Assembly: GCF_002113885.1 (NCBI RefSeq)
Contig: NW_018408729.1
Location: 233,213-297,212, forward strand
Length of the DNA: 64,000 bases
Direction: 5' to 3'
From: Mizuhopecten yessoensis
Lineage: Eukaryota
This document shows, piece by piece, positions 18,958 to 53,185 of this stretch. Positions within the stretch are counted from its first letter, which is position 1. Every line of letters starts with the position of its first letter. The notes below the pieces were generated by a model, which was not told the origin of the DNA, ran no database searches, and saw only the letters and a program-made list of their open reading frames with translations. The translations under genes were made by a program, and so were the position numbers.

Positions 18958-19039
18958 ATGGATCTTAAGCAAACCAGAATAATGGATTTATTGCAGTATT
19001 TAGTTTATTCGACTGTCGCAGTTTTGGTGTTTGTCAAAG
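18958..19039 (+). CDS. Ig-superfamily ITIM/ITSM receptor, exon 1 (signal peptide)
   Basis: MDLKQTRIMDLLQYLVYSTVAVLVFVK hydrophobic leader. AAG|gtaagt phase-1 donor joins exon 2 to give ...VFVKDLHA/DISV, a plausible cleavage site. Intron 1 is 22.8 kb and contains an assembly gap, so the linkage is inferred. Confidence 0.72.
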
Positions 19040-22000
19040 GTAAGTTAGTACGAACATGTATAAATCCCCACTGTCATGTTGTCGGTCGACCGGCTGTGTC
19101 GTCTACAGTACAGATGATAAAAATAGCGTCTGTTTTGGGAGTGTCTCGCTTGGCTAAACCTGAACACAACTAACTGTTATTCTTTCTAGAGATTAAACCT
19201 GGACGTGTTAATGTCACCTTACACTCATGTTTGTAAAAGAACTTTATCAAAAAGTGAAAACTTGATACGACCCGTAAAATGTAAAACGGGCGCTTCCTAA
19301 GGAACGGGCACCTGTTCGTCTGTGTTTGGAGATATGACCAGTTACACTACCCCACCTTAGCGTACACAAGCGGCACAGTCTAAAGGGACTGCTGGACTGT
19401 GGGAGATAAAATGAATCTAGCTGTACGATTTAATAGAATGTTTGAATTCGTCTCTGTTTGTGTACGTGAACTTATATTGGCATGTTGAAAATAACTAGTC
19501 GTTAGCACTACTGTCGGTTTACAAGGCCTTATAAGTTAATATCATAACATCACATTTTTAAACTGATTTGAAAATATATTCCTATTGTAACACAACCGAT
19601 TGCAGTAAAGCAGTAAATGAATATTTTATGCAAATGAACCATTTAAAATTACAATTTAAAAACGGTTTATTAAACATTTTAATGACGTTTTATGAATCAA
19701 GTATTAAAATTTTCAAATATTGTATTTAATATTATACTGAAGAGCAGTACTAGTTATCAATGATAGTTTTAACTATTTCGGTGTCTTCTATTTAGTAACA
19801 CAGAAATTCAGATTAAAAGACAGTCAAAAACGTCAGACTAGGACAAAAGGTGTATCATAAATGTTTATTTGAATAGTAACCTCATAACTAACACATACAG
19901 AGGATTGGTAATCAGGCTAGCTGTGAAGATAAATGATAGTTCAAGTCTTAAGGGGTTTTATCTCCAGAGTAAGTCTCTTACCTGAGAATGTTATAAATTA
20001 TCAAGGTTCAAGTATTAGCCCAGTAAATATACTTAGTAGTTACCTATTCTAATCTTATCAGTGAACATTATTTGATACAATGTGTACAAAATAATTAAAC
20101 ATTTCAACTCAAAGAAGATTCTGAATGTAAGGTAACTGCACAGTGCACACTGAAGTATTGATTTGTTAAGAAAGTGTAATAGAAAATAATGTGTGCATAA
20201 TTTAAACAAGTCTGTATTTGTCTATAAATGTTATTGGCAGACCAAGGCTAAGTCTACCAAATCAATGTCATGAAGCAGCCGAGTTCTTTAGCCTAGATAT
20301 CACACAGGTCTTGAGTGTTGAAGTTGTCAGTTTATGACGGTTAAAGCTTGTTGTGTCATCGTTGATAATCGTTGATAAGATATTGACCCTGGAGAAGAAA
20401 ACATTTTCAGAACTCAGAAGGGGTTCTGTCTATTCAGGTCATTTGTATACTAGCTTTTATAAAATTGCGTTTGAGGAAAGGTTTACATATAAAGTTGCAA
20501 AAAAACCCCACAGAAATCCTTTGAACTTGGATCAACCTTCAAGCAAGGTAACTTTTGGAACCCGAATTGGCATCGACTTCTTTTGACTTTAAACTTCAGC
20601 ATATGTTTGTTGTGTTTTCAGATAAAGAACTCTGGCAAATGTAGACAGATGTCAAGATTGCTTTATATGCTTAAGTTTACAGTTTTTAAACCAACTTTTA
20701 ATGTCTTCCTGGCAAGTGTTGATGGAACAATAGCTGTGTACCTGCAGTATTTTTTTTACTCCCCCTAAACATTGAAGTGTCTGTGGGAATTGAGCAGTTA
20801 ACATCAATTTTATAATCTTTTTTCAATGATAAAATACATATTCAGGAAAAATAGCAACCAGTTTATCTGAAAGGACACAAATGTCCTTATGGATTTGAAC
20901 TTCTTTCTTTATCAATTCTGAACATTTTAGTTGTAACCCCATTTTTATTGACAAATGGCCCTTTGCCTGACTTTGGTTTGAAAGTCTATTATAGGTATAA
21001 TAGCATGTGACATTCCAATGGAGTCCAGTTGATTAAATTGTTGGCATGCTATTAGGTTGTAAACCATATAGTCAAGACATTATATGGTGGCATGTATAGG
21101 GGACATACATTACACCCTCTCCTTCACAGACTAGCTAGATTGCAATTGTGATGTCTTGCAATGGGATAGAACAGTCTCAAACATCATTTCCCCATAGAGA
21201 TAAATTAAAGTGACCAGTGTTTCCTGAGTTTGTGTTTGTGAAATAACTTTAGTGATGGTCACCAGGTCTCACTTCATTCACCCTATCATACATTATATAT
21301 AGGAGGGTCAGTTTCACACCTCCAACCTCTACCCACCCCTGGCCCCCAACTATAGCTGTAGTTTTATGTCTGGGGACATGAACGGGTCATAAACAGGTGA
21401 TTAAACTCTCAAACCCTTTAAATAGGACCCGTGACAGGTCACTCAGCCCGAGTAGGAAGTAACTGTGCTGTTAAGTGTTATACAGCCCAAATAAAAGTTA
21501 GTCAAGAAGGGTCAATCATTGTGAGTCACTAACTCGCGGAACAAAATGAAACATGACGTTTGAACATGTAAATGCATACAGACCTATACACACAGAATAT
21601 TTATTATTCTATTTATAAGTGATTTTGATGTTACAACCAGGAAAAGGTTTTTGAAAGTACATTTAAAGTACAAGTTTTCTAAACTGTAAATAAAATTTGT
21701 ACCGAGTACGAATTAGGTGTGTGCATGCTTGATTGAACACAAGTTTGATGTATTCAAATTAAATTTAAGTATAGACTGCGCTGTAACGAAATTTGTAACA
21801 TACAAAGTCGATATTTCAACAAATTGGAAAATTTAAATTTCTGTTTTGATGGATCAGATTAAAATGTTCAGCTTGCTCAGTTAAATATTTTGGTAAAAAA
21901 ATTGTTAAACTGATGCAAAGTTTGATTATGTTGAACATGTAAAGACTGCATAGTTATTTTGTGAATCATGCATAAACTGCACCTGTAATGTGGATAAGAT

Positions 22001-25000
22001 TGAGTTTTTGTTGGCAGGTATCTTTATATTTGTATGGTAAATTGGTTATGTAGTAAAAAGGTAAAAATGAAGTAGACCATCATATCAGAAATATATATAC
22101 CCAGGTCTTAATATTGCTTCCTTTCCAACAGAAATTATTTTAATTTAGCAATGATCATGATATCATATTTAATAGAATAAAGTCCAAATTATAAGGAGTC
22201 CGTCAGAGGCTTAGGACTGGACGATGGTCAGTGCAGAAGTTTTTTGGCAACATCATAATTATTGGTGCTGTGAGAAAATAAATTTACAATTTTTATTAAT
22301 GGTTCATATTTTAATTGAAATATATTTGACTGTCAAAACACAGAAATTTTAGAACACTACCAAGACTTCAGATGACCATTCGTACTTAAGTTTTCACTTG
22401 AATTCTGAGGTTCAAATACTTTTCAAACACACATGGTTTTCTGATATCCAGGTATCAAAAGCTACATATGGGAAGTCAAAAGCATACTACCAAGGATTTT
22501 ACAAAAGTTCTGCAGTACTAACTATACGTTAAAACATTAAAACCAAATTTAAATTTATGTCTCTTTGAAGCAAAGATCGTACAAAATGATGGAGTAACAA
22601 AATTAGCTGAAAGCCTACAGGCAATATATGTCAGAATGATTATGTCACAGAAATGAGAACGGTGCGTGACATACCCTATAGCTAACACATATACCATTAG
22701 TTAGCTTGTCATATATATACCTATATAAGGTATGGTCTACTACACCTGGAGAGAGCTTGTCTGAAAGTTGGCGTAGAAGCCTTGATAACTACATTAGTTA
22801 AGTTATATTGTATATAATATAGCTTAAAATTGATTAACAGAAAAAAAGTGTCCTTGACTTGAAATGGACACCATGCAATATTTTTTTATATCTGTTAATT
22901 CTACAGACTGTTAATTTCAATTCAAAGTACTTGTGAATTGGCACGAGGCTAAATGGGACAGCATGATGTACAATAATGTACACCCCCTTCCCTGTATGTG
23001 TATACATAGTAGCTACAATGAAATTAAAGTTCATGTTTTACCTAATGAGAAGTGTTTTAATTGAAGCTTCAATTTGGGACAGTAGGATATACACCATTGT
23101 CCATGTCTATTACTACAGTGAAATAAAGTTGTAAATTTTACCGAAACGGAAACTTAATAATTGAAGGTTTGGGACAGCAGGATGTACACCCCTACGTGTA
23201 TACGTATCTTTAATAACTACCTACACATCTGTGACAGGGCAATGTTTGGGTAACTTTACCCTTACCTGTATATGTATCTAACTACCTGTATAGGTATCTA
23301 ACTACCTGTATAGGTATCTAACTACCTAAACGTCTATGACAGGGCAATATTTGGGTTACTAGTTGATCATCATCTATCAAGTACTGTCTGATTATGAACC
23401 CCTAGGGACAAATCACAGGTACCAAACTCACAGGTAAATTAGGTAATCACATCATACTGATCATGACCTAATCACCTGTCAATACAGTGACTCACCTCAC
23501 TCATCAGTACCGTGTACCTAACACATAGTGCATACAGGAAGTAAACAGTCGATTAGGACCCCAATGCAATCTGAATATGAAAATCTAATACCATCTCTAA
23601 CAAAATGATGTATACCTCTTGCTCAATATCTGGAAAAATATAGTAATGAATTGATGCGGTCAGTTTTAAATAAATGAACATAGGTGACCGTGTGAAGTAT
23701 TGTCGGACACGATGATTAACAAATTAAAACTACAGTTGAAAACTTAATCGAGAATTAATTGATTTTAGTAGAATTTTTATGTGGAATATTTGTCCTCAGT
23801 AGTAAATGTAAATATTATATATCATTGAGTATGGTCAATAGATCTACTTAGTAGACAAAACCCTGTGTGTTATGTACACATGTAGATGTCGGTATCAGTT
23901 AATGTAGTAATGGACTAGGGATACCAACATGTATTCTGGTAGTTCACTAATTGGCAGAGATATACCCACAGTCAATAATATCAGTTAACAGTGTGTGATA
24001 TAGTTACACAGATATTGTCAATTGTCTGAACACAGATTGTAATTTATCTGTCTATCCTGGTGTATATTACAATATTTTGATTTATGTACTGGACAAATGG
24101 CTTTATAAAATCCTGTATCAAAGTGACCTCTAAATTTCCACTTTAATAATACTCAACGCTTCTTAATATCTGATTGTGCATATAATGTAAACCTCAAGTT
24201 TAAACAGTTCTTGTAAAAAAATTAAAAGATCAAATAATAAAATATCAAATAATTTATAGATGAGGTCCAAAGGAATAACAATGATTTACAATAAGAAATG
24301 TTTGGTGTTTATAAAGGTAAACATCATAATGGACCTGTGAAGTCATGATCAGGAAAACATGCTAAAGAAATTTGTTATTGAGAACTCTTCATATATTTAA
24401 CCAGTGTAAATAATTCATACAAGAAACATCCTCCACTAGGGTAAACATTCCTGTAGTTATGATAAAATTTAATTTCTGCTCCACCAACACTTTCTCAGTT
24501 TCTGTTCTTTCACTTCAATTAAATTATCACCCCTCTAATACTTCTTGGACATTTTGTCAATTTCTGTACTATCACTATTATGTATACATATTAATAACAA
24601 TTTTATTACTGATCCAATTCTTTTTGGACGTTTTGTGAACTACACATGACGATTTAAATTTCCGCTCCAATCCTTTATGGTGCCGTCAATTGTTGTTGTA
24701 TAACCACTATTTCCTGTTCTTTGGATGTATTACACAATACATAACAATGGGTAATAAACACATTACTTCAGCTTACAAAGAGCTGACATTGATTTTGTCA
24801 TGACCATGGCCACTCCTACAAAACAGGCTCCACCCATGTGAGTCAGGGACCTGTGATGGTGTAGTGTCCACCTGTTGCTGTGTTTCCATGGTTACAACCA
24901 CAACATGTAGGATGTATCATAACCCTCCCACTACCCTCCCCCTCCCCGGAGCTCCATGTAGCACTGCTTGACTAAGTGTTTAGCAGTGCATAATGTATTA

Positions 25001-25232
25001 ATTCATATCATGTCTGTATGTCTTCCTGCCTATCTTTTTCTGTTATATCAAGCTTAAGCAATGTATTGGAGCGCACAGTCATTAAACATTGATGGTACTC
25101 CTTTATGAAATGTTATGTTAAGCTTGACTACCACTCTCCTCATCCTTCCAGCTTCTGTATTTCGTGTACAGATATACAGTATATATATATACTGACTACA
25201 GTGTCATCAGTATTTTAGATGCTGTATATAAA

Positions 25233-25305
25233 CTCATTCACCCCTGAACTTTCATATTAATAAACTTTTCTAAAATGTCCAAATATGTCTTCAGTGGTGA
25301 ATGAG
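25233..25305. mobile_element. TTAA-type MITE, subfamily 2 (internally deleted)
   Basis: CTCATTCACC...GGTGAATGAG TIRs; flanks taaa/ttaa. Confidence 0.65.
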
Positions 25306-25652
25306 TTAAGAGGTTATAGATGATATTCGTATCAAACTGGTGAATAGGTGTTGTGTGTATAGAGATATGGAGTATAGAGACTACAGTGTCATCATTAGTT
25401 AAGATATACTGTATATCTAAAGGTGATAGACGATAATGGTATTGATAAATATCAGTAGTGTGGATGCTGTATATTGAGATATTATTAGGCCATATTCCTC
25501 AAATTTTCCTGTGGGTGACTATCGAGGAAAGAACCACTTCTTCCCCATAATCAGCATGATTTACCTTATCAACCTATCACAGTATGGATTTGTAATCTTT
25601 TATGACAGCTTTGTATTATTTTATTTAATAAACAGTTGTTATGCCCTCTAGT

Positions 25653-25842
25653 GGCCTGTACAGTATACAGTAACCCCAGTATACAACTGTAACTGGCCTG
25701 TCCAGCAGTACAGTATACGGTAACCCAATATACAACGGTTACTGGTCTGTCCAGCAGTACAGTATACGGTAACCCAGTATACAACGGTTACTGGCCTGTC
25801 CAGCAGTACAGTATACGGTAACCCCAGTATACAACTGTTACT
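25653..25842. repeat. 49-bp minisatellite, ~3.7 copies
   Basis: tccagcagtacagtatacggtaacc at 25701, 25750 and 25799. Confidence 0.85.
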
Positions 25843-26197
25843 GCGTGTGATGTCCAGCTCTATATATTCTGACCTAGGATGTTCCGCCTCCCACATATAC
25901 CTGTACTTATAATTACCTGTTCCATCATTGTCACTAATAACTCAACAAAGACAGGTTATAATCACCTGTAATTCAATCTGGAGATATACCTGCTCACCTT
26001 GCACAGGTATACATCTCTTTTTACTCACATATATGTCAATCATTTCTAGCCTTATTGTTAGTAAGTATATGTATATATATATTGAGAATTGTACCTGTTG
26101 CACCCCTTGCATGATCGTAAGAGGCGTTAAATTTGGGATCTTATCTTTTCTCTTCTTTCTAAACAGCTTTCTTCTTCCTAATGTCTCCCTTTACAAT

Positions 26198-26602
26198 GCC
26201 TCACTTATGGTCTTTAGTTGAGCGTTCACCCCTGTGAGGATGGCTTTGGGTTCTGTCCCCTGGCTGAGACATACCAGAGTCTGTAAAAATGGTAGTTTCT
26301 ACTCCTGCTTAACGCTAAGCAATTTAGGAGTGGGGCGACTGGTTCGCCGGTTGTCAGTATAATGTGACTGGGTGGGGTGTCCTGCTGGGTGTCTTCGGCA
26401 GTATGTTTCAGTGAGGTAGTGCTATAAAGTCGGCATCAGTTCAGCACTATCACAAGGAGACAAACACGAACATAGCACAGCCTCCCAAAACACACACGCA
26501 TACATCTTGCATTATACAATGATGCAGGGGAGGTCGTCCTTAAATGAATAGCTGTTTTTTGATAGGACGTTAAACAATACTAAACCAAACCAAACCAAAC
26601 CA
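26198..26602 (+). mobile_element. tRNA-derived SINE with a Meta-like central domain (BivaMeta/RUDI-like)
   Basis: Decayed A/B boxes (gggttctgtccc), aaaaatggtagtttctactcctgcttaacgctaagcaatttaggag core, and an (aaacc)n tail. Confidence 0.75.
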
Positions 26603-27404
26603 ATTGCAAAACTGTACCTATTATTACACATTGTAAGTTATAGATGTATTCATACTCTTCCATGCAAGCTTGTCAAAAAACTATAATTTAAAATAAATTA
26701 CTTGATAAATATTTGAAGAAAAAATACCACTTGAGAAAACCGAAATCCAGTGTGAGAGCTCAAAAATGACTTGCTGCTTTAAACAATATCTATTTAGGGG
26801 GAAAAAAGTATGTAAAAGTATTTAAACAATTGGTATTGACCTAGAATAAGAACTACATGACCATACATCACCATTGTGTCAGTAAATAGGTTTCCTGTAC
26901 ACCATTCCTATCTGTTTTGTGTGTCAGTTCGACCAACTAAGTGAATGGATTGTGACACATTACCTTAATTAGCTGACTTTAGTACATGACTTAGGTACAC
27001 GGTCTATAGGTTTACCGTATTTATCTGGTAACAAGCCCACTAACATCTATTGAAGTTCAACAGAAACACAAACAAATGATACATAATGGTCCTGTATCAG
27101 CCCATCCTTATAAATTATAACACTTTGAGTTAGAGATTATGTTTTGGTCCACTGGACTTACTGCAGTATATATATTTGTATTGTATATCGTGCTGAACTT
27201 TTTTGTAGCCTCACCTAAATGTTTCTTTCACACGAGGTTAAAAGAAAACGTTGTTAGAGGTGACCTTCAGCGAATGCCTTATGATAATTTGATACTAAAT
27301 ATCATACACCATAAGAACATTTCAAAATTAACATAAATATTTCTACTAAAGGAATGCTATCCGGTCTGCTTACTACATGAATAGGACACAAGATTGTAAA
27401 GAAC

Positions 27405-27822
27405 NNNNNNNNNNNNNNNNNNNNNNNNNNNNNNNNNNNNNNNNNNNNNNNNNNNNNNNNNNNNNNNNNNNNNNNNNNNNNNNNNNNNNNNNNNNNNNNN
27501 NNNNNNNNNNNNNNNNNNNNNNNNNNNNNNNNNNNNNNNNNNNNNNNNNNNNNNNNNNNNNNNNNNNNNNNNNNNNNNNNNNNNNNNNNNNNNNNNNNNN
27601 NNNNNNNNNNNNNNNNNNNNNNNNNNNNNNNNNNNNNNNNNNNNNNNNNNNNNNNNNNNNNNNNNNNNNNNNNNNNNNNNNNNNNNNNNNNNNNNNNNNN
27701 NNNNNNNNNNNNNNNNNNNNNNNNNNNNNNNNNNNNNNNNNNNNNNNNNNNNNNNNNNNNNNNNNNNNNNNNNNNNNNNNNNNNNNNNNNNNNNNNNNNN
27801 NNNNNNNNNNNNNNNNNNNNNN
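27405..27822. other. Assembly gap (418 N)
   Basis: Run of N next to a poly-G tract. Confidence 0.99.
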
Positions 27823-28144
27823 GGGGTGGGGGGGGGGGGAACCACCAATTATTATCAAAGGGAAGGGGCCTTTATAATGTCCATAATTGACATTACAAAC
27901 ATCTCTGCTGGGTAAAAGATATAGAGTTGGATGATATTTTGTTATATAGAGATGATATAGAGTTATATTGTAACTATGTAGGTCAGTGGATGTGTCCCGA
28001 GAGGATGTTTTATAAACAGGTGGTATACTACACTATAGTATTGTGGTGTCCAACAGTATAGCTACTGGCAACAGTTGTAAACAAGAGTACAATGTCTATC
28101 AGAGCCTGACCTACTACAGCTACTAGTATACTACAAGCCACTGG

Positions 28145-28335
28145 TATCACTTACATCTCTATGTGACAAACTGAGGATTTCAAATTTTCAAAGCTGACCC
28201 TGACTCGGCAGAAGTTACAGACAACAGTTGTATCAAGCTTTATCACTTACATCTCTTTTGTGACAAACTGAAGATTTCAAATTCAAAGCTGACCCCGATT
28301 CGGCAGAAGTTACAGACAACAGTTGAATCAAGCTT
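28145..28335. repeat. ~96-bp tandem duplication
   Basis: tatcacttacatctct...cagttg(t/a)atcaagcttt occurs twice. Confidence 0.8.
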
Positions 28336-31300
28336 TTCCAATATTTTGTTAAGTTGAATAGATTTGTTTTTCGATCATTCGTTCGAAATGTTTGTAAATT
28401 ACATTAGTGATCTTTGTTAAAAAAAATCCTGATATGTATGTTTTATTTTAATTGTATGATTTGTATTTGGTTCAAACACTCATTCTATGTCAAGGGTTTT
28501 TAAATCCAGTTCTCGTTCTGTGACAAGGATTTAAATTTTGTTCTCGTTATGTGACGAGGAACTAAACCTAAAAAACCTTTACCAAGGCCTGAAGGCCTCT
28601 ACTTGTATTCTGTAAATTTACACCACGCACAACAAATTCAGACCGTACACACCGTATTTGATTTCACGTTTAAAAATACATTTTGCTTGAGTTATCTACC
28701 AGGATGACTGGGCAGTTTTACAGTAAGTTAATGGAAATGATTTTTGTCCAATGAAAGAAAACGTTTTTATGTTGGTGTCATAGAAGTCTTGTTGGTGTCA
28801 TAGAAGTCTAGACAGATTGATATATACAGTATACTGTAGCTATAGACCTCAGACGTATTCCTTATTTAATTTCTATAGGCATGATCAGATCTCGGCAAAA
28901 CCATTTTTAATTCAATATTCAAAATAATCTGGGAAGGTAAATTTACATGAACTAGACTGAAATTCTCCCTCCACTTCCTGTCCAAAAAATCCCCACTCAT
29001 TGAATTTGTGATTGGTATCAAAAGTCCATTTCCTGTCCGTAGATTGTTTATCTGTAGCTAATTATAACATGTCCATGGCAATACAAAATAAACCTTGTCG
29101 ATTCCCAATAACAGTTCAGATTGAACCCGTGGGAATCAGTCCTATATCATACCTAATACTATAGGCCTAGCTGTTTACTGTACCAGGGATATTAATTAAC
29201 ATGTGGTCGTCCCACAGGTAACACGGGTAGGGTACCGGTGTTTATAACCAATCTTTATGCCCCATCGAAAACCTTGCTGCAAACTTTATGCCAAAGAATA
29301 CACACCAATTAATTTTTGCATTTGGTCTCCTTACTAGAACGTTGGAACATAAGGTCAACAAAGTAAAGTTACCTGCTTCGGTTCTGATCAGTTGAATTTC
29401 TCTCCCGTTTGGGTTTCCGTATATCTGTTTGGTGACACCAAGCTGTAAGTCACAAACCAAATTGCTTTCCAGTTTCTCTGATACGTCCCAGTTCTTGTAA
29501 ACACACCCTACAACCTTTTCTTTGGTGTTTTATTCCCAAGGTTTACAAGCTTCTGAGTATCTAGTGGGGCTTCATGGCTGTCACTGTGCCATAGCCACAG
29601 CATATCACCTGGATAGTTTTGAAACAAATGACCACCTGACCTTTCATTTTGATCTTCTCCTTTGATTGACCATCCTTGTTAACGTTCCTCCCCTGACTTT
29701 GAAACATCTCACATGTAACATTTGACTGGTTGTGTCAGATGAACCTACAGTGTATGTAGAATCCTTATTTACAAACCTGACATATGATCACCGTGCAAAC
29801 CATAGTGTGTAAATACACCTGCTTTTCTAAATCTGAAAATGTAGATTTATTTTTTGAAATAAATGTTTTGAAACTATTAGCAATGATAAGGAGAGTCAGT
29901 TTTATTAAAGTACTTACCTGGAAATAAATAATAATTTTCCCATGTAAAGTGAATGTCATTGGTCATAACTAAGTGATTTTTTAAGATCTGAGCGGTTGAG
30001 TAAACAGTTACTTTAAAAACCTATAGATAAAAACGAGAAATGCAGATCAGATCATTGATTAGTGAATGCATACTTTCCTTTTGATAATTAACAACCGCAG
30101 AGTTGGGTTTTTATCATAAGCGCCCCTAATTTACCTAAATGGGTTGTTGAGTGATAAAATATGAATGTCATTGGATGTTTTACTTGGTGTGCCCTTGGTA
30201 AGGTAGATTTGCCCTTGGGATAGTATCTATCTACACATTGCTGAACAGGTATTTGAAAGTACTGACTGAGTTTATTTTTTACTCAAATATGAATGTAGGA
30301 AAAGCTAACTTAACAAATGTACATTATTGTAAATGCTGATCATTGATCAGCTGTCAACACACAGTGTTATATACTGAACTAATACCAGGTAATATAGTTT
30401 CTTAGTAAGCTAAGCTCTCTGTGATAATTTAAACAAGAGCATCAACTACGCAGTGTAATACAATTCTTATCCCAGATATAGATTAGGACAAGCACAATGA
30501 ATATTGCAAAATTGTGATAAAAGACGAAAATGGATTTCTTTTTTGCCTGTGAAATTCCTGGTCATTGTTTTGATACAACATGTCTAGTTTCCTCAAATTG
30601 TGTGACACTTCATCGGAAATAACCATATTTATGTGTTGTTTGGATGAAAATGGTCCGATTTTTGCCTGTGACATTCCTGAATATTGTTTTGATAAAACAT
30701 GTCAAATTTCCCAAAGTTGTGTGACACATCATCAAAGGAATTAAACATTTCCAGTGTTGTTTGTGAAACACTAGGAGATCTTTTATGGTTGATAGTGATG
30801 AGCATGGTCTCTGACACCTGTATGGCCTATATATAGCTACTGGTCATCTTATTAATTAGCCTACCTGTCCCCAGAGTAATTTCTACTCACCTATGACACC
30901 TGTCATTGCCTTCTCCTGTGGGACAAGGAATGTTTCCCTGGGTCCAGACTACTAACTAAATGTCAGTGTCAAGTCCCCTTAGTTATCTCCCCTTGTAAGA
31001 TTCTATATTTTTAACAAAATGTAACTAGATTCATTACATAGACTTGTACAGCACCCAAATTTCTGTATTATACTTTTATTTCAACCAATACCTGACAAAG
31101 TAACCTGTTCTGTTGCTGTGAGTTAAGAGGACAGGTCTGTTAAATGTTAAGCCCTGGGTAGATAATAGACCACGGTGGTATCTCTGACACCAGTGTAACA
31201 TCAAGGGCTGGTTAGCTTTACACCAGATTAAAAAAAAATGTTTTGTGGGGAAAGTTTATTATAATTCACAAACTTAATAATATGAGATGTGAAGCTGAAT

Positions 31301-42604: not shown

Positions 42605-42952
42605 CCAAACCCAACGCTACAGCCTTTAATGAAGTGGAAGTGGTGCCAGCAGCTAATGTTGAGGAGGGACAGGCGGTCACGTTCACTTGTACCGGTAACG
42701 TTGGTCGGCCGGCAGGGTCCTTCTTATGGACCAGGTACAAAGGTACCACAGCGGGTACTGGTACCACCATAGCCTCTACCACACAGACATCCCCTAGTAC
42801 TGACTGTACCTTCACCGGCAGTAGTGTCATCGCTATCCCTATGACCAATGACGACAACGGTATCATTGTTAAATGTGCCTTACAACAGGAGACCATCACC
42901 GACGCCACAGACACCGCCTACTTTAAACTGACCAATGTCATCAACGTGTTTT
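42605..42952 (+). CDS. Ig receptor exon 3 (Ig C2-type domain)
   Basis: EEGQAVTFTCTGNVGRPAGSFLW...DNGIIVKC; 348 nt, phase 1-1. Confidence 0.93.
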
Positions 42953-43017
42953 GTAAGTTAATGCTAGCAAAATGGTTTGAAGTTCTATTTGCTCACTATT
43001 AAAACAGTACTGATTGA

Positions 43018-43100: not shown

Positions 43101-43635
43101 TTAAAGTATATGTTATGAATTAGACTTGACTGTTGGAATAGAAACATTCAGCTAATTCAGCCAGTTAATGTTCTCAGGGATTTTCAACTTGAGACAATTG
43201 ATTTACTGTATACCAGGAAACTTTTACCCAGTCAAATTTTCGCCATTCACCATTCAAATCCACTTTTGCCCAGTGTGACGGGCGAACCTTCACATTTGAT
43301 TACTATGTTTATTATATTGCTACTGCGAACCACTGTGATGATACATTCATCTCAATACAGAGGCTGAAAAAGTTGGGCTATATTTCTATCTTTACCAGTC
43401 ATTTTGAGACTAAATTTTGTTTCTTTCTTTTAAATGTTTAACTTATAATCATTGTTTTTTTCATTTTCATAGGATTTTTCACTTGAAACTACCATAATTT
43501 TTGGGTGATTTCATCTAATTTTAAAATTTGAAACAACCAGTCATATTTTCTGAATATTTAACACTTGAACAGGAACATTTACCTTCCCACACATCTATCA
43601 GATTGACATATGTAGATTGATTTTCTTTAAAACAG

Positions 43636-43899
43636 ACAAAGTGAGAGCCCCTACCATTATGAAGAGTCCCAACGCAGCAGTTCATTACGAGGGCACCACT
43701 TTGACCTTGACCTGTGCTGCCGAGGGCAACCCTACTCCTACGTATGTTTGGCGGCTTAATGGCACACAGGTCGGCACCTCAGCAGAGCTTCAACTGACCA
43801 ACATCAAGATTGCTCAATCTGGAGACTATGTCTGTGAGGCCACGAACAACTTTAACGGGAACACGTACAACATGACCAGTACAGTCGGCATTAACATAG
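43636..43899 (+). CDS. Ig receptor exon 4 (Ig C2/I-type domain)
   Basis: EGTTLTLTCAAEGNPTPTYVW...QSGDYVCEATN; 264 nt, phase 1-1. Confidence 0.94.
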
Positions 43900-45453
43900 G
43901 TATGGCGTTACATTTACATCAACCTCAATGAAACACTACCTGAGGAAATATGTCAAGTTAAATTATATAAATATGTAGGGAGCAACAATAAATAGACCTC
44001 ATGTTGGTTAGGCCTAGTTTTGGATAAATAGTAATGTGTAGGATATATACTAACATACATTATGTTATCACATAGTCTGTCTAAAGCATTCTCTTCTGAC
44101 TTAAAACTAGTGTTCTGTTACATTTAAATGTTTCTTGGAAAAGAGTACTAAATAATACACTTGACAAGTAGGGGCGTATTCACTTTATGAATTTTTATTT
44201 AATTTTCTCACTTTTGTTGATTCTTATATATTTTATTTTTCTTGTTCTTCTCATTTGTATTATGTTATTATGATTTCTTATCCACATTTATTTGTACACC
44301 ACCACCATCACAAACTCCCCTGAGTTACCTCCCTTTATTTCACTCTCCACTCTCCTGTTAGTTGTCTCCCTTACTTTCACTCTCCTGTCATTAACAGTGA
44401 ATATGAATCATTGGAAATACTCTCACTGTAACCAAACAAAATTTGTGTCATAATGAAATATAACGAGTCAATACATAAGGCACAGAATCTACTTCTTATT
44501 CTCAGTGTTTGACATTTTGAAACAAACTTATGTTTTAACATGACAAATTGAGAAATTTAGTTTCGAGAATTAACTCCAATTTACTGTAAGATATTCCAAT
44601 GATTTGTATTTTTTCTCTGATTTTATTTTCCTTCTTTCATTTTCTTGCTTGCATTTTGTATTAGTTTGGTGTTGTTTCTTTCTTTTCCATGTTCGCTAAT
44701 ATTTTTGTATCTTCTATTAATTGGGATAAACATATTTTGTAACCACAAGACAGAAACATTCAGTTAACCTATACTCAGCTCTGTAAACGGACCGAAGATT
44801 GAATATAAATACTATATACAGGTTTATTTTGTTTGTACATTTTTAAATTGGTAATTTATTTTCAGTTATTTACTGTATGGCACTAAAATTTTGTGATTCA
44901 TTCTTTTAATTGACAAATTTCTGTCAAAATTTTGGCTTATTATGATTTTAAGTGTATATTGGTCTTAAATAAAACATAAGAAATTATTTAAATTGTTGAT
45001 TGGCCATAAAACAATATAAAAACCGTCCATTGATATGTCTACAGGCATACTGAGTGTATAATCTGTTCATTTCATAGACCACAATTATCATGAAATTAAA
45101 ACCTTTGTGAAATTTAAGTGCTGTACAGTTATTATATATATTTATATAGGTATCCATATATATTATACAAGCATTTCATCAGATTGAAGCATTTAAATTA
45201 TCAATAATTTGCATCTTTGCCGAATTTTGTGCGCATGTTGCATACAAGTTGATGCTGTGGAAGCTATCAGCAACTAAGGAACAAAAGATCATCTCCTAAA
45301 AGTAAATAAAGTATCACAGTATTATCCCCAGAGGAGATTTATAAATTCTTCTCAGTCCGTAACGCTACAGGGTAGAAAATACCTGTAAGAATTTCATATT
45401 ATGTAATATATAAAAAAACCAACCTTCTCATCGTCACATCATTGTACAAGTTT

Positions 45454-45550
45454 ATAATAATGATAAAAAATAATAATTTGAGGTTCTTATATACCGCTTT
45501 ATCACAACCTAGTTCGTAGGTCGTCTAAAAGCGGTTCACAAATTATTATC
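45454..45550 (-). mobile_element. 5'-truncated copy of the CORE-SINE at 36421
   Basis: gaggttcttatataccgctttatcacaac...cacaaattattatc is near-identical to 36438-36508. Confidence 0.8.
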
Positions 45551-45826
45551 AAAATATTAACAATACAAATCGCTCACTCAGTCATAGCTTGACAAAGGGA
45601 CCAGTCGGTCTTAAACATTGTGACATGTTCAGCACCTATGTTGTTTATAAAGTAATACTTTGATAAAACCTTCTGAGTTTTGCATATTGCCAGTTAAGTT
45701 GATTTGTCAGTGATACAGGACCAGGTCTTGAATTAATGTCAATACCGGACTGGTACTTTATACTTCTACTAGCTAGTCCATGTGGGAATATTGATTCCAC
45801 TTACCCAATATTCTTTAGGCTGAAAA

Positions 45827-46241
45827 GTAATATCAAATTCAGACAAGTTTGTCAGGTTAGTAGTTCTACAACATACAGAGTAATATCAAATTCAGACAAG
45901 TTTGTCAGGTTAGTCATTCTACAACATACAAAGTAATATCAAATTCAGACAAGTTTGTCAGGTTAGTAGTTCTACAAAATACAAAGTAATATCAAATTCA
46001 GACAAGGTTGTCAGGTTAGTAGTTCTACAAAATACAAAGTAATATCAAATTCAGACAATTTTGTCAGGTTAGTAGTTCTAAAACATACAGAGTAATATCA
46101 AATTCAGACAATTTTGTCAGGTTAGTAGTTCTACACCATACATTGTAATATCAAATTCAGACAAGTTTATCAGGTTAGTAGTTCTACAACATACAGAGTA
46201 ATATCAAATTCAGACAAGTTTGTCAGGTTAGTAGTTCTACA
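45827..46241. repeat. 53-bp minisatellite, 8 copies
   Basis: gtaatatcaaattcagacaagtttgtcaggttagtagttctac every 53 nt. Confidence 0.95.
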
Positions 46242-47449
46242 TTTGTTTAGATTAGTTGTGTGATCAACTTACAAAGTGGAAACACCTTTTATATATTAAT
46301 TACATCAAACTAGATTTGTTCTCTCCAAAACTGGGTGCATAGATGCCATAGGCAAGTCGGCTTAAAGTTGCTTGTTCCTATAAATTCTATTGTTCCATTC
46401 AATGCATTTTTGGGGGGAAAATGCATTGCACATGCTTTTAGATTATAATTTATTCAAACTTTAAAAACCAATTTTCAGTTTAATGTTTTCTCTTGGTTTC
46501 ATTTATTTCTAATTTTCCGTCATTCCTCGCCTGTGTGATTTATACCATCTTCAGTTCCTGTCACCCCTAAGTTATCATTTTGTCTGTCCCAGTTTCTAGG
46601 CTAATGTTGACAAACACTAATCCTTCACCTATGATCCAGTATGTCAGTTCATTTCAACTTGAACATGTTTCAGATAGACTTTGTTGTGATGAGGTTATAT
46701 GCTACAAAATTGAAAATTTTCATGTGTGGAAAAGTTCAAGTTGAAAGAACCTATTGTGACGAGGAAAACTTTATGTTGACAATGGTTCTGAAGTATATAT
46801 TAACTATTTATCTATAATCTACACAATATTTAAATAAATGTTCAGGTGTGGATATTTCCACGCTAATTTACTCAACATGAAAATTGGGAACATTTTCATT
46901 TCAAATTTACAGTATAATTGAATCATCACAATATGTTGTAGTCAGAGGAAATCTTTCGTTTATATCTTTGTTTTTTTAGTTATTTGCTATTTAAACAATT
47001 CAGTACTGATAATTTATACTAATATCATGCCCAAAATCTCAACTGACTTCCTTTTTAAAATCCAATGATCAAAAGCTTGTTTATCTTTGCCAGGAACTGA
47101 TTTAAAACAAATAAACATCTCAAACTTTCCCAACATTGACTGGTAAACACAGCGTACAGTTTCCATGAGAATAAAAAAAAGTAGGGTACATAAGCTATCT
47201 GGCAAAGCAGAAACAAAAACATGATTAAGATTTAATGAATATTAAACTGGTAAAAGTTATTTTGATTTGTATCCGATAAGACTTATTGTCAGTGGTTAAT
47301 TAATAATAACATGGTAATGGTTATAATTTGGTATCAGTTTAGTTTTGGTATAAGTTTAATTTTGGTATAATTAATATTGCATTATTAGCTATAATTTGGC
47401 ATCAGTGATAATATGGTTAATAACTTAAACTGGGTATAAATCTTTTTTT

Positions 47450-47880
47450 TTATATCAGTGATAACCTGGTATAACTTCTAATTTGATATCAGTGATAACC
47501 TGGTTAAGTTATAATTTGATATCAGTGATAACCTGGTAAGTTATAATTTGATAACCTGGTTAAGTTACAATTTGATATCAATGATAACCTGGTTAAGTTA
47601 TAATTTGATATCAGTGACAACCTGGTTAAGTTATAATTTGATATCAGTGATAACCTGGTTAAGTTATAATTTGATATCAGTGATAACATGGCTAAGTTAT
47701 AATTTGATAACCTGGTTAAGTTATAATTTGATAACCTGGTTAAGTTATAATTTGATATCAGTGATAACCTGGTTAAGTTATAATTTGATATCAGTGATAA
47801 CATGGTTAAGTTATAATTTGATCTCAGTGATAACCTGGTTAAGTTTTAATTTGATATCAGGGATTACCTAGTATAACTTA
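47450..47880. repeat. Minisatellite with mixed 33-bp and 24-bp units
   Basis: gatatcagtgataacctggttaagttataattt, plus a variant missing 9 bp. Confidence 0.92.
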
Positions 47881-48090
47881 TAATTTTATGTAAGTTATCA
47901 TTTATAACATGTTATTTGCTATAACTTAATATCAATTTAAACCTGGTATTTTGATTAGTAATAACCTTGTATTATTTATAACACGTTGTTATTGATATGT
48001 TGTTATCGGTCATACACAGGTATCAGTTTCACCAACATTTATAGCAAGGTATCAGGTAGAACTTGATACCATTATTTTGATAGGCATTAA

Positions 48091-48175
48091 CTCACATTCA
48101 CCCCTAATAAATTAAAGTGGACTTGTCTAGTCTTTGATTTGGTTAGGTTCAAACAAAACTTTAGGGGTGAGTGGG
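48091..48175. mobile_element. ~85-bp TTAA-type MITE, subfamily 2
   Basis: TTAA|CTCACATTCACCCCT...AGGGGTGAGTGGG|TTAA. Confidence 0.7.
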
Positions 48176-49035
48176 TTAATTACTTGATATAAGTTATGAT
48201 ATTGTGTATATTGTATCCGTTGATTTGTTATCAGTTATAACATGTTATGATTGCAGATAAAATTGTCAATAGCTTGCACATAGCTGGAATGTATAATTAA
48301 TAATTTGCATGCTTTAAATGAACTCTATAATCTGGGCTAGTATACAGACAAACGTGTAGCATTCACTGCCAGTCATATCAAAGATGTCCGTGCTGAGAAC
48401 AGGAAATAGATTTTTTGGAAGGATATTTTTCTTGGAAAAGTAATTTAAGAAACTTTTGGATTTTTTTTTTTTAATTTTTCAAATCTTGGCTAAAATGATT
48501 TGATATGACTCGCAGTGAGTAATGGAATCTCTTGACAAGGAAGTGATAAATACATGTAGAAATGATATAGGTAGGAAAATCTCATGAACAATGTTAGACA
48601 ATTCTAGATTGTTAAAATCTACCCGAACCATGTTACATCATTATTAAAGCTGACTCTGGCAGTAAAAAATAATTACTCAGTTTTGTTTGTTATTTCAAAG
48701 TTTTACTTTCTACACAAACAATGTTTGTATTAAATGTGTTTCAACATTTCAAGACTGACAGGTCCCTTTGTGAAGCTATCTATGACTGAGTGAGTCACAT
48801 CCTTGTACAGGTAAAAAAAACAAATCGCTCACTCAGTCATATAGCTTGACAAAACGTTGCGACACATTTAATACATGCATCGTTTGTGAAGAAAATAAAA
48901 CTTTGATGTCACAAATTTCCAAACTGATGAATCTTATTGAAGAAAAGTTTTGTTTATATTAGATCAAAACAAACATTGATTGTAAACACTTCTGATGTAC
49001 ATGTATATTGTAGGGGTACACAATTCAGCTGTTAA

Positions 49036-49118
49036 CCCTGTCACCACTGTAGACCATAATGGACTCATCCAGATCAATGCATGGTAGAGTCTACTAAAGT
49101 TACCTAGGGGTGAAAGGG
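49036..49118 (-). mobile_element. 83-bp piggyBac-type MITE, subfamily 1 (reverse orientation)
   Basis: TTAA TSDs; reverse complement of the copy at 35494. Confidence 0.88.
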
Positions 49119-49730
49119 TTAAAGTTCCATCAGTAATATGACATAACAATACATAAAGCCATCAGAGATATGTTATTTGCTGTCTGTCGTCTTACACAAG
49201 AGATTCCATGTTTTATCTACACGAGGTCAAACCAGACAAACCTACTGTTTTCTTACTTAACTATCAAAGATTTTCTTAAAAATTCTTCAAAAGAATATGA
49301 ATGAATGATATATGGCAAATATATTTGAAGAAAACAAAAATATGGGAGCTTTCAACTTGGTCTATAATATTTTTTAAATTTTTATGAGTATTTAATATCT
49401 ATTGGTAAATGGTGACAAAGCTGTTAAATTGACATGTTAAGATCCTCGTTTTGGAGGCTTTCATTGAATATACAATCTACAATTTTGGATTTTCAGCAAA
49501 AAATATCAAAATATTTAATCTGAACTTTTTTGAAAATGGCAAAAGCTGAAGTAAATATATCATGAAATTTCTGGGGAAAAGCTACTGCTATTTGATGAAA
49601 CAAGAAAATTATTGACACGAGAAACAGTATATTTGTTTGTTGGGCCTGAGATCTAGATGTGTTATAACATGGCTGAGAGAGGTGAGTTTTCTGCATGATT
49701 CTGGACATCTATTACCTCCCTTCTCTACAG

Positions 49731-49829
49731 AAACACAACCCACCACTACCCCCACTACAACCACTCCTGTTCCATCTGTAGACCCCACAGGAGGAGGCGG
49801 CACCCAGGCACCCCAGACCGAGGACGATC
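49731..49829 (+). CDS. Ig receptor exon 5 (Thr/Pro-rich stalk)
   Basis: Encodes ETQPTTTPTTTTPVPSVDPTGGGGTQAPQTEDD; tacag acceptor and gtaagt donor; 99 nt, phase 1-1. Confidence 0.88.
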
Positions 49830-50423
49830 GTAAGTAGACTTGTGTAATCAGATCTACAAGTTATTGTTACATTATCATATACGCACATACAATACTCGGC
49901 TTCATAACTTTATTATCTCATTTAAATAAACCCTGACGTTTGGTACCATAGTGACCAGTCAATCACTCACAACATTCAAATGATGTTTTAATTTTGTTGT
50001 TTAAATAAATGTTAGAACTTTTTAAACAAATTTTGGTTTTAATGAATAGGATAGTCACAAATTTAATGTTGTTTTGACATTTCTATTTTTGTAAAATGTG
50101 TCTTTACAGTAATAAAGACAAATTTGACATAACGTTTGAAAGAAAATGTATGTACTCCATTGCTTTTACATGAAAAAGACTGTTTGATTGTAGAATTATC
50201 AATATCTACATATAGCCGATTATAATGATAAAGATGTGCACTTTTATCGTAGAACATGATACAGTTGGATCTGCCCTATTGGAATCAGACCAGCGTTAAA
50301 GTATTGAAATTCACTGTATATACCAATATCTGTTACATATAGCAATGTTGTGGTGATTCAGATAGATGCTGAAGGTAAACTTGTTATATACACTGTACAT
50401 AATAATGTGGTTCTTATTACAAA

Positions 50424-50757
50424 CAATCTGATTAAAATCATCTGTTACATGGCTCCGCCTGAACATCTGAATGTGCCACTGTTAGGGTCACGTTCAAGTG
50501 ACCTTTAGATGAACCAATCAGAGGCGCGCTGGCAACAGTGTGCCAGCGAATCGGAATATCATTCTCATCAATGTCCGCCATATTTGTTACAACTCCAAGT
50601 GCCCTTTTGAAAGAAGGTCTCTGATTGGGGTCAAAATTTAATGAATATTTATAAATATAAAGGTCACCTGAACGTGACCCTGACCGCGGCACACTCAGAT
50701 GTTCAGGTGTAGTGCAAAGTTAACAAAGCCATGTAACATATGATTTTACTCAGATTG
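50424..50757. mobile_element. 334-bp foldback MITE with long TIRs and a 9-bp TSD
   Basis: CAATCTGATTAAAATCATCTGTTACATGGCT / AGCCATGTAACATATGATTTTACTCAGATTG; pairing extends ~85 bp; flanks tattacaaa/taatacaaa. Confidence 0.8.
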
Positions 50758-51076
50758 TAATACAAACAGACATTATTATTCTTCATCAAATGAAGCTGTA
50801 AACACCTGGAGACTTATTTTATCATCATACATTATTTGGGTTCGTTAACTGTCATTCATGTGTATTTTGATTATTTAATAAACCAAAACTGATAGAAATC
50901 TTCAAAAGATTGGAATTTTGTTTTTCTTGTGACGATTTATAATTGCATGGTAACAGAGTTGTTGGGGACAATGTTATGTTCCTGGTAGGGCTTTTCAACA
51001 TGCTGAGTAATTTATAAATCTAAACAAGTAGATCGGGTGATCTTGATTGGCTATGTAGTCACAATTTTTACTACAG

Positions 51077-51199
51077 CTGAAGGACTCAGCACGACCATCA
51101 TCATCGTCATCATCGTCATTGTCGTCGTTGTCATCGTTGTCGTAGCCGTCGTTGCCTTTATTTGTCTCAAACGTAGAAACGCCAACAAGAGTATCGAAG
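51077..51199 (+). CDS. Ig receptor exon 6 (transmembrane segment)
   Basis: EGLSTT-IIIVIIVIVVVVIVVVAVVAFICL-KRR with a basic stop-transfer; 123 nt, phase 1-1. Confidence 0.92.
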
Positions 51200-51704
51200 G
51201 TAAGGTCAGCCCGGAGGAAGCGTCTTAAAATTGCCTACCTAATAGGTTACGATGAATAAAAATATATATTTATCACCTATGATATGGTGATATAAATAGA
51301 CTAGATCTGTTATCTGTCAAACCTGTGCATGTTACACGATAAATAGAATCTGTCACTCCAGTGAAGGGTAAGACACTGACCAGTGTTTGTAGGTAGTCCA
51401 CTGTAGTTGAAGAGATCATTTTGCTAGTCCTGCATCCTAGAAACTAGTGAGAGATTTCCTTAAGGAAACATCTCAGCATATACAGGAAAAGTGATTAACT
51501 ATATGAAGCTTAAGGAAAAAATTGTCAATTGTTATGTAACGAAGTTTATCTGTATTTTGAGCAGTTTTCATAATAGGACAATTCTTACTTTATAATTTAA
51601 AAAAAAAGAGTTAAAATAAGAGAGAGAGAAAAAACGGGTCTTTCACAAGAGATAACAATGCAATGAACACGCTTTTAATGATTGTAATCCTTGTTTATTT
51701 TCAG

Positions 51705-51726
51705 AACCTCCAGAGAAGCCAAGAAA
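51705..51726 (+). CDS. Ig receptor exon 7 (22-nt micro-exon, EPPEKPRN)
   Basis: ttttcag acceptor and gtaagt donor; phase 1-2, required to put exon 8 in frame. Confidence 0.82.
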
Positions 51727-52077
51727 GTAAGTTGATATCTAGATAAAGGGGGATAACCCATTATGTTCTAATGACATGATTTGAGTATAAGATCAAGGGA
51801 GGTCACTCTTTTATGTTAGATGCCAGTATGATCTATTACTGTATGTTTGAAGTATTTTGAAAGTTGTTAGTTTTACTGACGTGAATAAAGGGTATACTTG
51901 TTTTGTCAAATTTGGCAGGCCATGATTAAACTGAATTCCTATGCTATTCCACTATATAAATCTCCTTGTATAGATGTTCCACAGAATATGTGTTCCTCTG
52001 TTAGGTCGGTCCTGTGTGTATTTATTATTTGTTTCCACTAAGCTGTACTTATGTTTGTGTCGTCTTTGTTTCCATAG

Positions 52078-52162
52078 TAACTCAGACCTGAGCTTTGTGA
52101 ACAAGCCTCCAGATGTGATCCGTAACGACGAGAAACGAGGAAATAACATGGGTTACAATAAT
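52078..52162 (+). CDS. Ig receptor exon 8 (cytoplasmic)
   Basis: Encodes NSDLSFVNKPPDVIRNDEKRGNNMGYNN; catag acceptor and gtgagt donor; phase 2-0. Confidence 0.85.
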
Positions 52163-52380
52163 GTGAGTATAGTTACAGCAACTGTCATGGAAACTGTGAA
52201 GCTGATCATCTGAACAGAAATTTTACTGGAATTGTTCTGATCAGTTATCAGTGAAACAAGTTTGAATAAAAACATAGCTACAACTACAAAAGTTTGGTTA
52301 AAAATATTTCAGGAAGAGTCTTACAGTAACTTTGACAAGTCTTAATAAACTGCTTCGGTAACTATTACCACTGTAAAAAT

Positions 52381-52930
52381 ATGTTTGTTACCATAACAAC
52401 TGTTAATGGAAATGTTTCTGTTACCATAGCGACTATTAATGGAAATGTTTCTGTTACCATAACGACTATTAATGGAAATGTTTCTGTTACCATAACAACT
52501 GTTAATGGAAATGTTTCTGTTACCATAACAACTGTTAATGGAAATGTTTCTGTTACCATAACAACTGTTAATGGAAATGTTTCTGTTACCATAACAACTG
52601 TTAATGGAAATGTTTCTGTTACCATAACAACTGTTAATGGAAATGTTTCTGTTACCATAACAACTGTTAATGGAAATGTTTCTGTTACCATAACAACTGT
52701 TAATGGAAATGTTTCTGTTACCATAACAACTGTTAATGGAAATGTTTCTGTTACCATAACAACTGTTAATGGAAATGTTTCTGTTACCATAACAACTGTT
52801 AATGGAAATGTTTCTGTTACCATAACAACTGTTAATGGAAATGTTTCTGTTACCATAACAACTGTTAATGGAAATGTTTCTGTTACCATAACAACTGTTA
52901 ATGGAAATGTTTCCGTTACCATTACAACTG
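52381..52930. repeat. Highly homogeneous 33-bp intronic minisatellite, ~16.5 copies
   Basis: Unit aatgtttctgttaccataacaactgttaatgga. Confidence 0.97.
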
Positions 52931-53047
52931 TCCTAGTCCTAGTATATGTTACTTGCTGTATGACTGATAATTAACCACACCTGTATGAGGACTTCAAAAA
53001 TAAATCTGGTTATTGAGTAACATGTGAGTGTATCTTCTAATTTCCAG

Positions 53048-53185
53048 TTTGACAAACCGAAGGGTGAACTACAGTATGCAGACCTTACGTTTGAAGACAA
53101 ACCGCGGAGTCGGCGTCCCATACAGATTCTTGACACTGACCTTGGACCAACGACCTACTCTGAGGTCACGATGCCAAGTGTGTGA
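53048..53185 (+). CDS. Ig receptor exon 9 (ITIM + ITSM, stop codon)
   Basis: Encodes FDKPKGELQYADLTFEDKPRSRRPIQILDTDLGPTTYSEVTMPSV*; ttccag acceptor, phase 0. Summed CDS is 1569 nt, 522 aa. Confidence 0.9.
   Translation, partial: FDKPKGELQYADLTFEDKPRSRRPIQILDTDLGPTTYSEVTMPSV

Follow-up and report, generated by a model that had tools for sequence, protein, structure and literature searches.

The 64,000-nucleotide stretch of the Mizuhopecten yessoensis genome analysed here (contig NW_018408729.1, positions 233,213 to 297,212; "the window") contains a gene for a cell-surface receptor with three immunoglobulin (Ig) domains, whose cytoplasmic tail carries an ITIM (immunoreceptor tyrosine-based inhibitory motif) followed by an ITSM (immunoreceptor tyrosine-based switch motif). 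The gene is real, and the motif pair, first noticed in a sequence-only reading of the window, is confirmed. With slightly better than even confidence, we take the product to be an ancient inhibitory Ig receptor of molluscs and nemerteans that serves a family of paired receptors as its constant 'off' member. The most informative feature of this family is a set of paralogues in which homogenised ectodomains are joined to tails with the pattern of an ITAM (immunoreceptor tyrosine-based activation motif).

A conserved tail beneath a variable ectodomain

In the window DNA, nine exons with AG/GT ends and matching phases (18958 to 53185) give a single open frame for a protein of 522 amino acids (aa), comprising a V-C2-I ectodomain, a stalk, a transmembrane segment and a cytoplasmic tail. 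Searched for by its last exon, the protein has matches in three scallop proteins, and one of them, P0001, is 100% identical over exon 9. This is the RefSeq protein 'cell adhesion molecule 2-like isoform X2' of M. yessoensis, which has 505 aa and matches all nine exons, and in which exon 9 is annotated in the frame claimed from sequence alone. It differs from the longer form solely by 17 stalk residues, skipped via a second acceptor at 49782. The acceptor of exon 3 was set at 42605 because P0001 uses it, and a candidate 18 nt downstream (giving a protein of 516 aa) was dropped for the same reason. With that acceptor and the stalk skip fixed by P0001, the full form has 522 aa, as first proposed; Pfam calls and the gene model likewise bear out the V-C2-C2/I ectodomain, stalk and transmembrane segment.

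The tyrosines of the ITIM and ITSM stand 27 residues apart, both within exon 9 and at the positions originally given. When the 94-aa tail was shuffled 100,000 times, an ITIM with an ITSM 15-35 residues downstream appeared in 0.015% of cases. A profile built from six tails, used in a search that relies on shared exact words, found 48 proteins among 4,725 candidates. Ten are unnamed, and several of the 38 that are named are closely related and so not independent. The named relatives come from bivalves, gastropods, three octopods and the nemertean (ribbon worm) Lineus longissimus, and the search found one or two copies per species across three mollusc classes. The first tyrosine is present in 33 of the 38 and the second in 34; a strict ITIM is found in 30, an ITSM (T-x-Y-x-x-V/I) in 23 and both motifs in 21. 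Among the 30 with a strict ITIM, the two tyrosines are 23-30 residues apart and Ala occupies the position after the phosphotyrosine (pY+1) in 19. The unnamed relatives, counted separately, include nine with a strict ITIM and six with an ITSM. Conservation of both tyrosine motifs extends far beyond scallops, across most molluscs. ITIM/ITSM tails with a spacing of about 25 residues bind the tandem SH2 domains of SHP1/2 bivalently, and Ala at pY+1 favours binding (PMC8631942). From the sequence, an inhibitory receptor that docks SHP-type phosphatases is the best reading of this tail.

Two further elements of the tail, a proline motif on the 22-nt exon 7 (51705-51726) and a PRSRxP block between the tyrosines (53099-53119), are better kept than the ITIM itself. 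By motif class, they are candidate SH3-binding and Ser-kinase sites. The unnamed protein P0192, with two Ig domains that are 24% identical to the family, has an ITIM and ITSM in an unlike tail, and may be from another family in which this pair of motifs occurs.

The sequence-only reading had offered either convergence or deep ancestry to explain the likeness to Siglec and PD-1 tails. Descent from a common signalling exon would account for the presence of both motifs in one terminal exon and for their fit to the vertebrate consensus, and CD22 and MAG do occur among whole-protein look-alikes. However, the named tail matches are molluscs and one nemertean only: the 48 matches of this word-based, and so limited, search include no named vertebrate, arthropod or annelid protein, nor any named protein from outside the lophotrochozoans. 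The tail matched none of the solved chains, and, on other multi-Ig proteins with an ITIM, the conserved blocks around its tyrosines score weakly (best E 0.03 among 140). CD22 and MAG also fit the predicted receptor model worse than nectins do, with TM-scores of 0.26-0.31 against 0.47-0.48 for nectin-1. Common descent of the exon is therefore very improbable, and we favour convergence because no vertebrate tail homologue appeared. The proposed checkpoint-like inhibitory receptor remains the best reading in its SHP-docking and convergent form, and deep ancestry is not supported.

The ectodomain was modelled with AlphaFold2 from an alignment of 18 sequences (mean predicted local distance difference test score 72, with a disordered tail). 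The top structural matches of the model are Necl-4 (Z 17.9, root-mean-square deviation (rmsd) 5.2, 280 residues aligned), nectin-1 (Z 17.7, rmsd 3.8, 289 aligned), nectin-3 and Necl-5; over the four, Z is 16.3-17.9, rmsd 3.8-6.9, aligned length 280-293 and identity 20-23%. The fold is thus predicted to be nectin/Necl-like. Searches of solved structures with single domains gave weak, generic Ig matches alone (best E 0.03 for V and 0.003 for C2). In a family-profile search of solved chains, CADM4 (E 5e-18) ranked far down among generic Ig matches; this ranking was led by the repeated I domains of CEA, Robo and Dscam and was discarded. Clusters from a language-model atlas (chordate MCAM, CD22, MAG) reflected generic multi-Ig likeness and were uninformative on orthology.

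Within the V domain, the B-strand cysteine C54 is present in 40 of 40 aligned relatives and the F-strand cysteine C139 in 35. Extra cysteines at C131 and C231 each occur in 39 of the 40, and may form an inter-domain disulfide. Compared with P0001, other scallops are 65-69% identical over the ectodomain and 91-92% over the tail; for oysters and mussels the figures are 30-34% and 53-60%. Among 10 scallop proteins, likeness within the V domain is 63% for the C/C'/F/G strands, compared to 86% for A/B/E/D. The sequence comparisons thus show an ectodomain that evolves fast above a slowly changing tail, with the CC'/FG side of the V domain as its most variable part.

Paralogues with homogenised Ig domains

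A search with the full-length protein gave 24 matches among 8,000 scored candidates, including 11 further scallop proteins with similar Ig domains but different ends. P0004, P0007, P0008 and P0011, from three species, have their own common signal peptide, transmembrane segment and tandem-YxxL tail. Other forms (P0005, P0006, P0009, P0013, P0014) have a short tail, no tail or a hydrophobic end like that of a glycosylphosphatidylinositol (GPI)-anchored protein; by eye, P0013 and P0014 show a small-residue site followed by a terminal hydrophobic stretch, as in a GPI-anchor signal.

Within a species, the ITIM receptor and its paralogue have V/C2/I identities of 89/96/91% (Argopecten), 86/90/81% (Pecten) and 76/79/91% (Mizuhopecten), compared to 68-78/61-82/65-77% for ITIM orthologues between scallop species. 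The transmembrane segment and tail are 89-92% identical among orthologues and 16-22% across receptor types. Over the three pairs, informative sites in the ectodomain group 52 times by species and never by type. In the signal peptide, which clusters by receptor type across scallops, the counts are 0 and 3, and in the stalk, transmembrane segment and tail they are 0 and 23, although the tail columns join non-homologous sequence and so show orthologue conservation only. Approximately unbiased (AU) tests on the ectodomain tree reject a clade of ITIM orthologues (p-AU 0.0008, 15 rows) and a clade of paralogues (p-AU 1e-96, 10 rows, with the tail-less Ylistrum row and P0006 excluded). Because both flanks are type-specific and common to the species, both gene types must predate the scallop speciations, with the Ig exons homogenised later; the same argument was made for rodent KLRC (PMC3210942) and Xenopus Ceacam (PMC5112662). 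The paralogue Ig domains thus appear to have been homogenised with the ITIM gene separately in each species, up to the boundaries with the signal and stalk/transmembrane exons. Such a pattern is what marks the paired receptors of vertebrates that gene conversion has homogenised.

The longest contig listed is the same for the ITIM gene and its paralogues in Pecten, and likewise in Argopecten. Alternative splicing of one locus was excluded as the origin of the second tail: each Ig exon occurs once in the window, nothing there matches the paralogue tail, and the ectodomains are non-identical. There is no second copy of the receptor in the 64-kb window.

The pattern YxxL/I-x(6-12)-YxxL/I is found once in the tail of P0004 and in four overlapping matches in each of P0008 and P0011. 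With 20,000 shuffles, it arose in 0.6% of cases for P0004 and in none for P0008 or P0011. None of the four paralogue tails checked (P0004, P0008, P0011 and the oyster-like P0078) has a strict I/L/V ITIM, and none of the paralogues has a charged transmembrane residue. We consider it somewhat more likely than not that the paralogues are activating partners. They could instead be further inhibitory or decoy receptors beside an inhibitory window gene, so that the family would be diversified but lack opposed signals. SxYxxL/V sites, which all three scallop paralogues have in their tails, and the occurrence of short-tailed, GPI-like and tail-less forms would suit that account. However, the lack of a strict ITIM, the tandem YxxL motifs with spacers of 8-11 residues (four consecutive ones both in Pecten and in Argopecten), and the ITAM pattern of P0078, which has no loose ITIM, make it improbable.

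Relatives beyond scallops were sought with the V and C2 domains in a representative library, giving 380 matches at E 0.001. Among the best 150 of these 380, 140 were new and unnamed, and 24 of the 140 reach 45% or higher identity to the ectodomain of a named ITIM receptor. The oyster-like P0078, with a transmembrane segment of its own and an ITAM pattern (shuffle p 0.016), shares 78% identity with the Saccostrea ectodomain, compared to 58-62% for other oysters. For P0070, which is mussel-like, identity to Mytilus ectodomains is 73-78%, compared to 81-83% for orthologues; its transmembrane segment is different, and its tyrosine tail does not fit the ITAM pattern. In the oyster-like P0081, a V-C2-I region 79% identical to the Ostrea ITIM ectodomain is followed by a terminal C1q domain (E 4e-18), with no transmembrane segment; it may act in soluble form as a decoy or opsonin, or may be a gene-model fusion. 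Most of the remaining high-identity records do not extend past the third Ig domain and are possibly fragments. A quick tree was made from 19 chosen rows; in it, six non-ITIM rows each nest within the ITIM clade of their own lineage. Less firmly than in scallops, the oyster-like and mussel-like records seem to repeat the paired pattern; they may also be independent recent duplicates or gene-model artefacts.

Two other records place the family ectodomain within a larger protein, with MAM and ZP domains in P0110 and with a long cysteine-rich extension and transmembrane segment in P0129. Matches consisting of 5-16 stretches at 24-33% identity were set aside as repeat-inflated; they presumably resemble fish CD22-like proteins.

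In the mechanism we propose, ligand binding on the CC'FG side of the V domain would cluster the receptor, and a Src-family kinase would phosphorylate both tail tyrosines. An SHP2-type phosphatase would then bind both phosphotyrosines bivalently through its tandem SH2 domains, damping nearby activating signals. We regard this sequence of phosphorylation, SHP2 recruitment and damping as probable from the motifs. Microbes or parasites that bind the brake would select for ectodomain change; the copies with an ITAM pattern, which probably recruit Syk, and the anchored or secreted decoys would stay ligand-matched through gene conversion or unequal recombination, as in CEACAM1/CEACAM3 and Siglec-5/14. 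For this pathogen-driven immune role, the sequence data tip the balance only slightly in favour. Functional ITAM-Syk signalling (PMC6994640) and ITIM-SHIP signalling (PMC11841013) have both been described in oyster haemocytes.

Several observations weigh against this immune, paired-receptor reading. In the tail, PRSRxP and the C-terminal P-x-V (36 of 38 each) are better retained than the ITIM, the ITSM threonine is absent from 15 of the 38 named relatives, and three octopods (P0058, P0059, P0061) keep PEKP, PRSRKP and P-x-V yet have lost the ITIM tyrosine, which P0051, an unnamed record with an octopus-like tail, retains. The evidence for homogenisation is at the level of protein, not of synonymous sites or introns; it covers all three Ig domains rather than V alone; and in Mizuhopecten the two gene types lie on separate scaffolds (359 kb and 720 kb). 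The paralogues may not activate, as P0004, P0008 and P0011 have three, two and one loose S-x-Y-x-x-L/V ITIM sites, respectively, and the acidic residue in the paralogue tail is at -4, not -3. Beyond scallops, tree placement is partly circular for three unnamed rows picked for their ectodomain similarity, and the tails of the oyster-like and mussel-like paralogues do not resemble that of the scallop paralogues significantly (E 3.3).

The main rival draws on some of the same tail features. It describes a nectin/CADM-like epithelial or neuronal adhesion or contact-inhibition molecule, in which P-x-V anchors to a PDZ scaffold, the tyrosines recruit SHP2 for growth, motility or endocytosis, and the paralogues are by-products of tandem duplication. 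The structural matches to Necl-4, nectin-1, nectin-3 and Necl-5, the persistence of P-x-V and PRSRxP even in octopods, and the low copy number over three mollusc classes are all consistent with such a molecule. Against it, the ectodomain diverges much faster than the tail, chiefly on the CC'FG side, identity to nectins is low, and homogenisation stops at the signal and stalk/transmembrane exons, as in opposing leukocyte receptors (PMC3210942). We judge this adhesion account unlikely, and continue with the inhibitory member of a paired family as the preferred reading.

Gene structure and surrounding window

Coordinates of the receptor gene are collected in the table below. An assembly gap of about 420 N lies at about 27400-27830, within the first intron. 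Tandem repeats occupy introns at 45824-46241 (53 bp x 7.9), 47448-47886 (33 bp x 14) and, just upstream of the last exon, 52386-52931 (33 bp x 16.5, 98% matches).

Table. Exons and tail motifs of the receptor gene (window positions)
Feature	Position	Strand	Evidence
Exon 1: start codon and signal peptide, followed by a 22.8-kb phase-1 intron	18958..19039	+	P0001 residues 1-27
Exon 2: V-set Ig domain, B-F cysteines C54/C139 and extra C131	41848..42255	+	Pfam V-set E 2e-6; conservation
Exon 3: C2-set_2 Ig domain, extra C231	42605..42952	+	Pfam E 8e-7; P0001 acceptor
Exon 4: I/C2-type Ig domain	43636..43899	+	Pfam Ig_3 E 5e-16, I-set 7e-12
Exon 5: Thr/Pro-rich stalk; alternative acceptor 49782 drops 17 aa (505-aa isoform)	49731..49829	+	gene model; P0001
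Exon 6: uncharged transmembrane helix and basic stop-transfer	51077..51199	+	
Exon 7: 22 nt, conserved proline motif P-[PAS]-E-K-P	51705..51726	+	motif in 33/38 named relatives
Exon 8: middle part of cytoplasmic tail	52078..52162	+	gene model; P0001
Exon 9: ITIM, basic PRSRxP block, ITSM, C-terminal P-x-V, stop	53048..53185	+	
ITIM LQYADL: Tyr at 53075-53077, Ala at pY+1	53069..53086	+	exon 9
ITSM TTYSEV: Tyr at 53156-53158	53150..53167	+	exon 9

The window is animal DNA with a GC content of 35.6%. Head-to-head with the receptor, the minus strand at 232-11497 carries the 5' part of a CFAP44 gene, in which the exon at 2006-2311 matches solved CFAP44 chains (E 1e-41). The long, acidic, repetitive open reading frames at 5745-6854 and 10319-11497 are probably the CFAP44 N-terminus. 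At 60694-61753 and 63035-63942 there are broken reading-frame pieces that resemble transposon remnants, with no Pfam match at E 0.01.

Comparison with known receptor systems

Nectins and Necls (nectin-1, CADM4/Necl-4, CD155/Necl-5) share the three-domain V-C2-C2/I shape and are the best structural matches. The scallop family differs in its low sequence identity (20-23%), its extra cysteines in domains 1 and 2, an unrelated tail and fast ectodomain change. Nectin and Necl tails carry an afadin-type or band-4.1 plus PDZ motif; here the tail ends in P-x-V, which may still bind some PDZ domain.

Receptors of the PD-1/CD28/BTLA type have a single extracellular Ig domain, compared to three in the scallop receptor, which also has extra conserved tail blocks and the C-terminal P-x-V; no homology was detected. 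Like PD-1 and BTLA, it has an ITIM and then an ITSM, with Ala at pY+1 as in BTLA (PMC8631942). The tail had been described as Siglec/PD-1-like: the motif pair agrees with this, but the spacing of 27 is nearer to that of PD-1/BTLA (25; PMC8631942) than to those of Siglec-3 (18) or Siglec-9 (23; PMC10906256).

An ITIM followed by an ITSM is likewise found in Siglec tails. The essential arginine of Siglecs lies at F-strand Tyr+3, and their V domain has no F-strand cysteine but an unusual intra-sheet disulfide; the CEACAM N domain, too, lacks the B-F disulfide. In the scallop receptor the F strand reads Y137-Q-C139-T140 (P0001 numbering), with Thr rather than Arg at Tyr+3. Arg is found there in just two of 40 aligned family members, and both B-F cysteines are present, in line with the first impression that this is no true Siglec. 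That V-domain Arg is essential for sialic acid binding (PMC5877582), and the Siglec tail consensus is an ITIM and then an ITSM (PMC13358205, PMC10906256). Judged by membership features in the sequence, the receptor thus falls outside the Siglec, CEACAM and PD-1 families, and would work like a PD-1/CEACAM1-type brake.

Among invertebrates, oyster Ig receptors have been reported with inhibitory ITIM tails (CgNCAM1, CgIgIT, CgIgIT2, CgSiglec-1) or a Syk-type ITAM tail (CgIgR; PMC11841013, PMC6994640, PMC5877582), as the sequence-only reading had noted for ITIM. These differ in architecture: CgNCAM1 has 617 aa and an FN3 domain, CgIgR five Ig domains and CgSiglec-1 two I-set domains. In the available descriptions, on which the comparison is based, none is presented as V-C2-I or as a member of a homogenised pair. 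Hydractinia Alr and Botryllus FcoR are clustered invertebrate genes of the Ig superfamily with V domains and ITIM or (hem)ITAM tails (bioRxiv 10.1101/2022.03.04.482883; PMC12065747). In contrast to the scallop genes, they belong to colonial animals, where they are allorecognition loci, and their architectures are different (Fn3-like, sushi); the passages available from these sources contain no cross-species homogenisation of opposing members. Oysters are thus already known to have ITIM Ig receptors, as Hydractinia and Botryllus are to have Ig families with ITIM/ITAM, and the ITIM and ITSM tail alone adds a member to these. In the literature covered, which excludes the subscription journals where most oyster receptor papers appear, we found no report of this receptor family or of a homogenised ITIM/ITAM pair in molluscs.

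The closest likeness in pattern is to vertebrate paired receptors (CEACAM1/CEACAM3, Xenopus Ceacam pairs, Siglec-5/14 and 11/16, KLRC, PIR), in which a member with ITIM/ITSM accompanies members with ITAM-like tails, the ectodomains being similar within species and the signalling parts similar between species. The GPI-like and tail-less relatives recall the CEA family. The same relations are found in the scallop family: partner ectodomains are 76-96% identical per domain within species and, at the protein level, the signalling parts are orthologous while the ligand-binding parts are homogenised within species. V domains of Xenopus Ceacam pairs are 80-93% alike within species (PMC5112662), and homogenised ectodomains with orthologous signalling parts were described as 'merohomogenization' for rodent KLRC (PMC3210942). 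The scallop family differs in being protostome, likened by pattern rather than orthology and with opposite signalling that we infer here. Its homogenisation takes in three Ig domains rather than the N domain only, and its ITAM pattern belongs to the tail of the receptor itself, whose transmembrane segment offers a DAP12-type adaptor no charged residue.

If the preferred reading is true, an inhibitory/activating pair with a homogenised ligand-binding part would be a solution that recurs wherever pathogens turn immune brakes to their own use, not a vertebrate invention. Comparative immunology would gain a conserved, low-copy, testable checkpoint candidate across Mollusca, with a ligand-binding site predicted on the CC'FG side and the octopod loss of the ITIM tyrosine as a natural contrast; farmed scallops, oysters and mussels would gain a candidate disease-resistance locus. 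More tentatively, and at somewhat less than even confidence, molluscs may have independently evolved a full paired system like those of CEACAMs and Siglecs: a 500-million-year-old ITIM/ITSM checkpoint of immune cells, exploited by pathogens, from which activating ITAM copies and anchored or secreted decoys, the C1q fusion of P0081 among them, were repeatedly made and kept ligand-matched by gene conversion in scallops, oysters and mussels. No pair of this kind would have been described from a protostome before.

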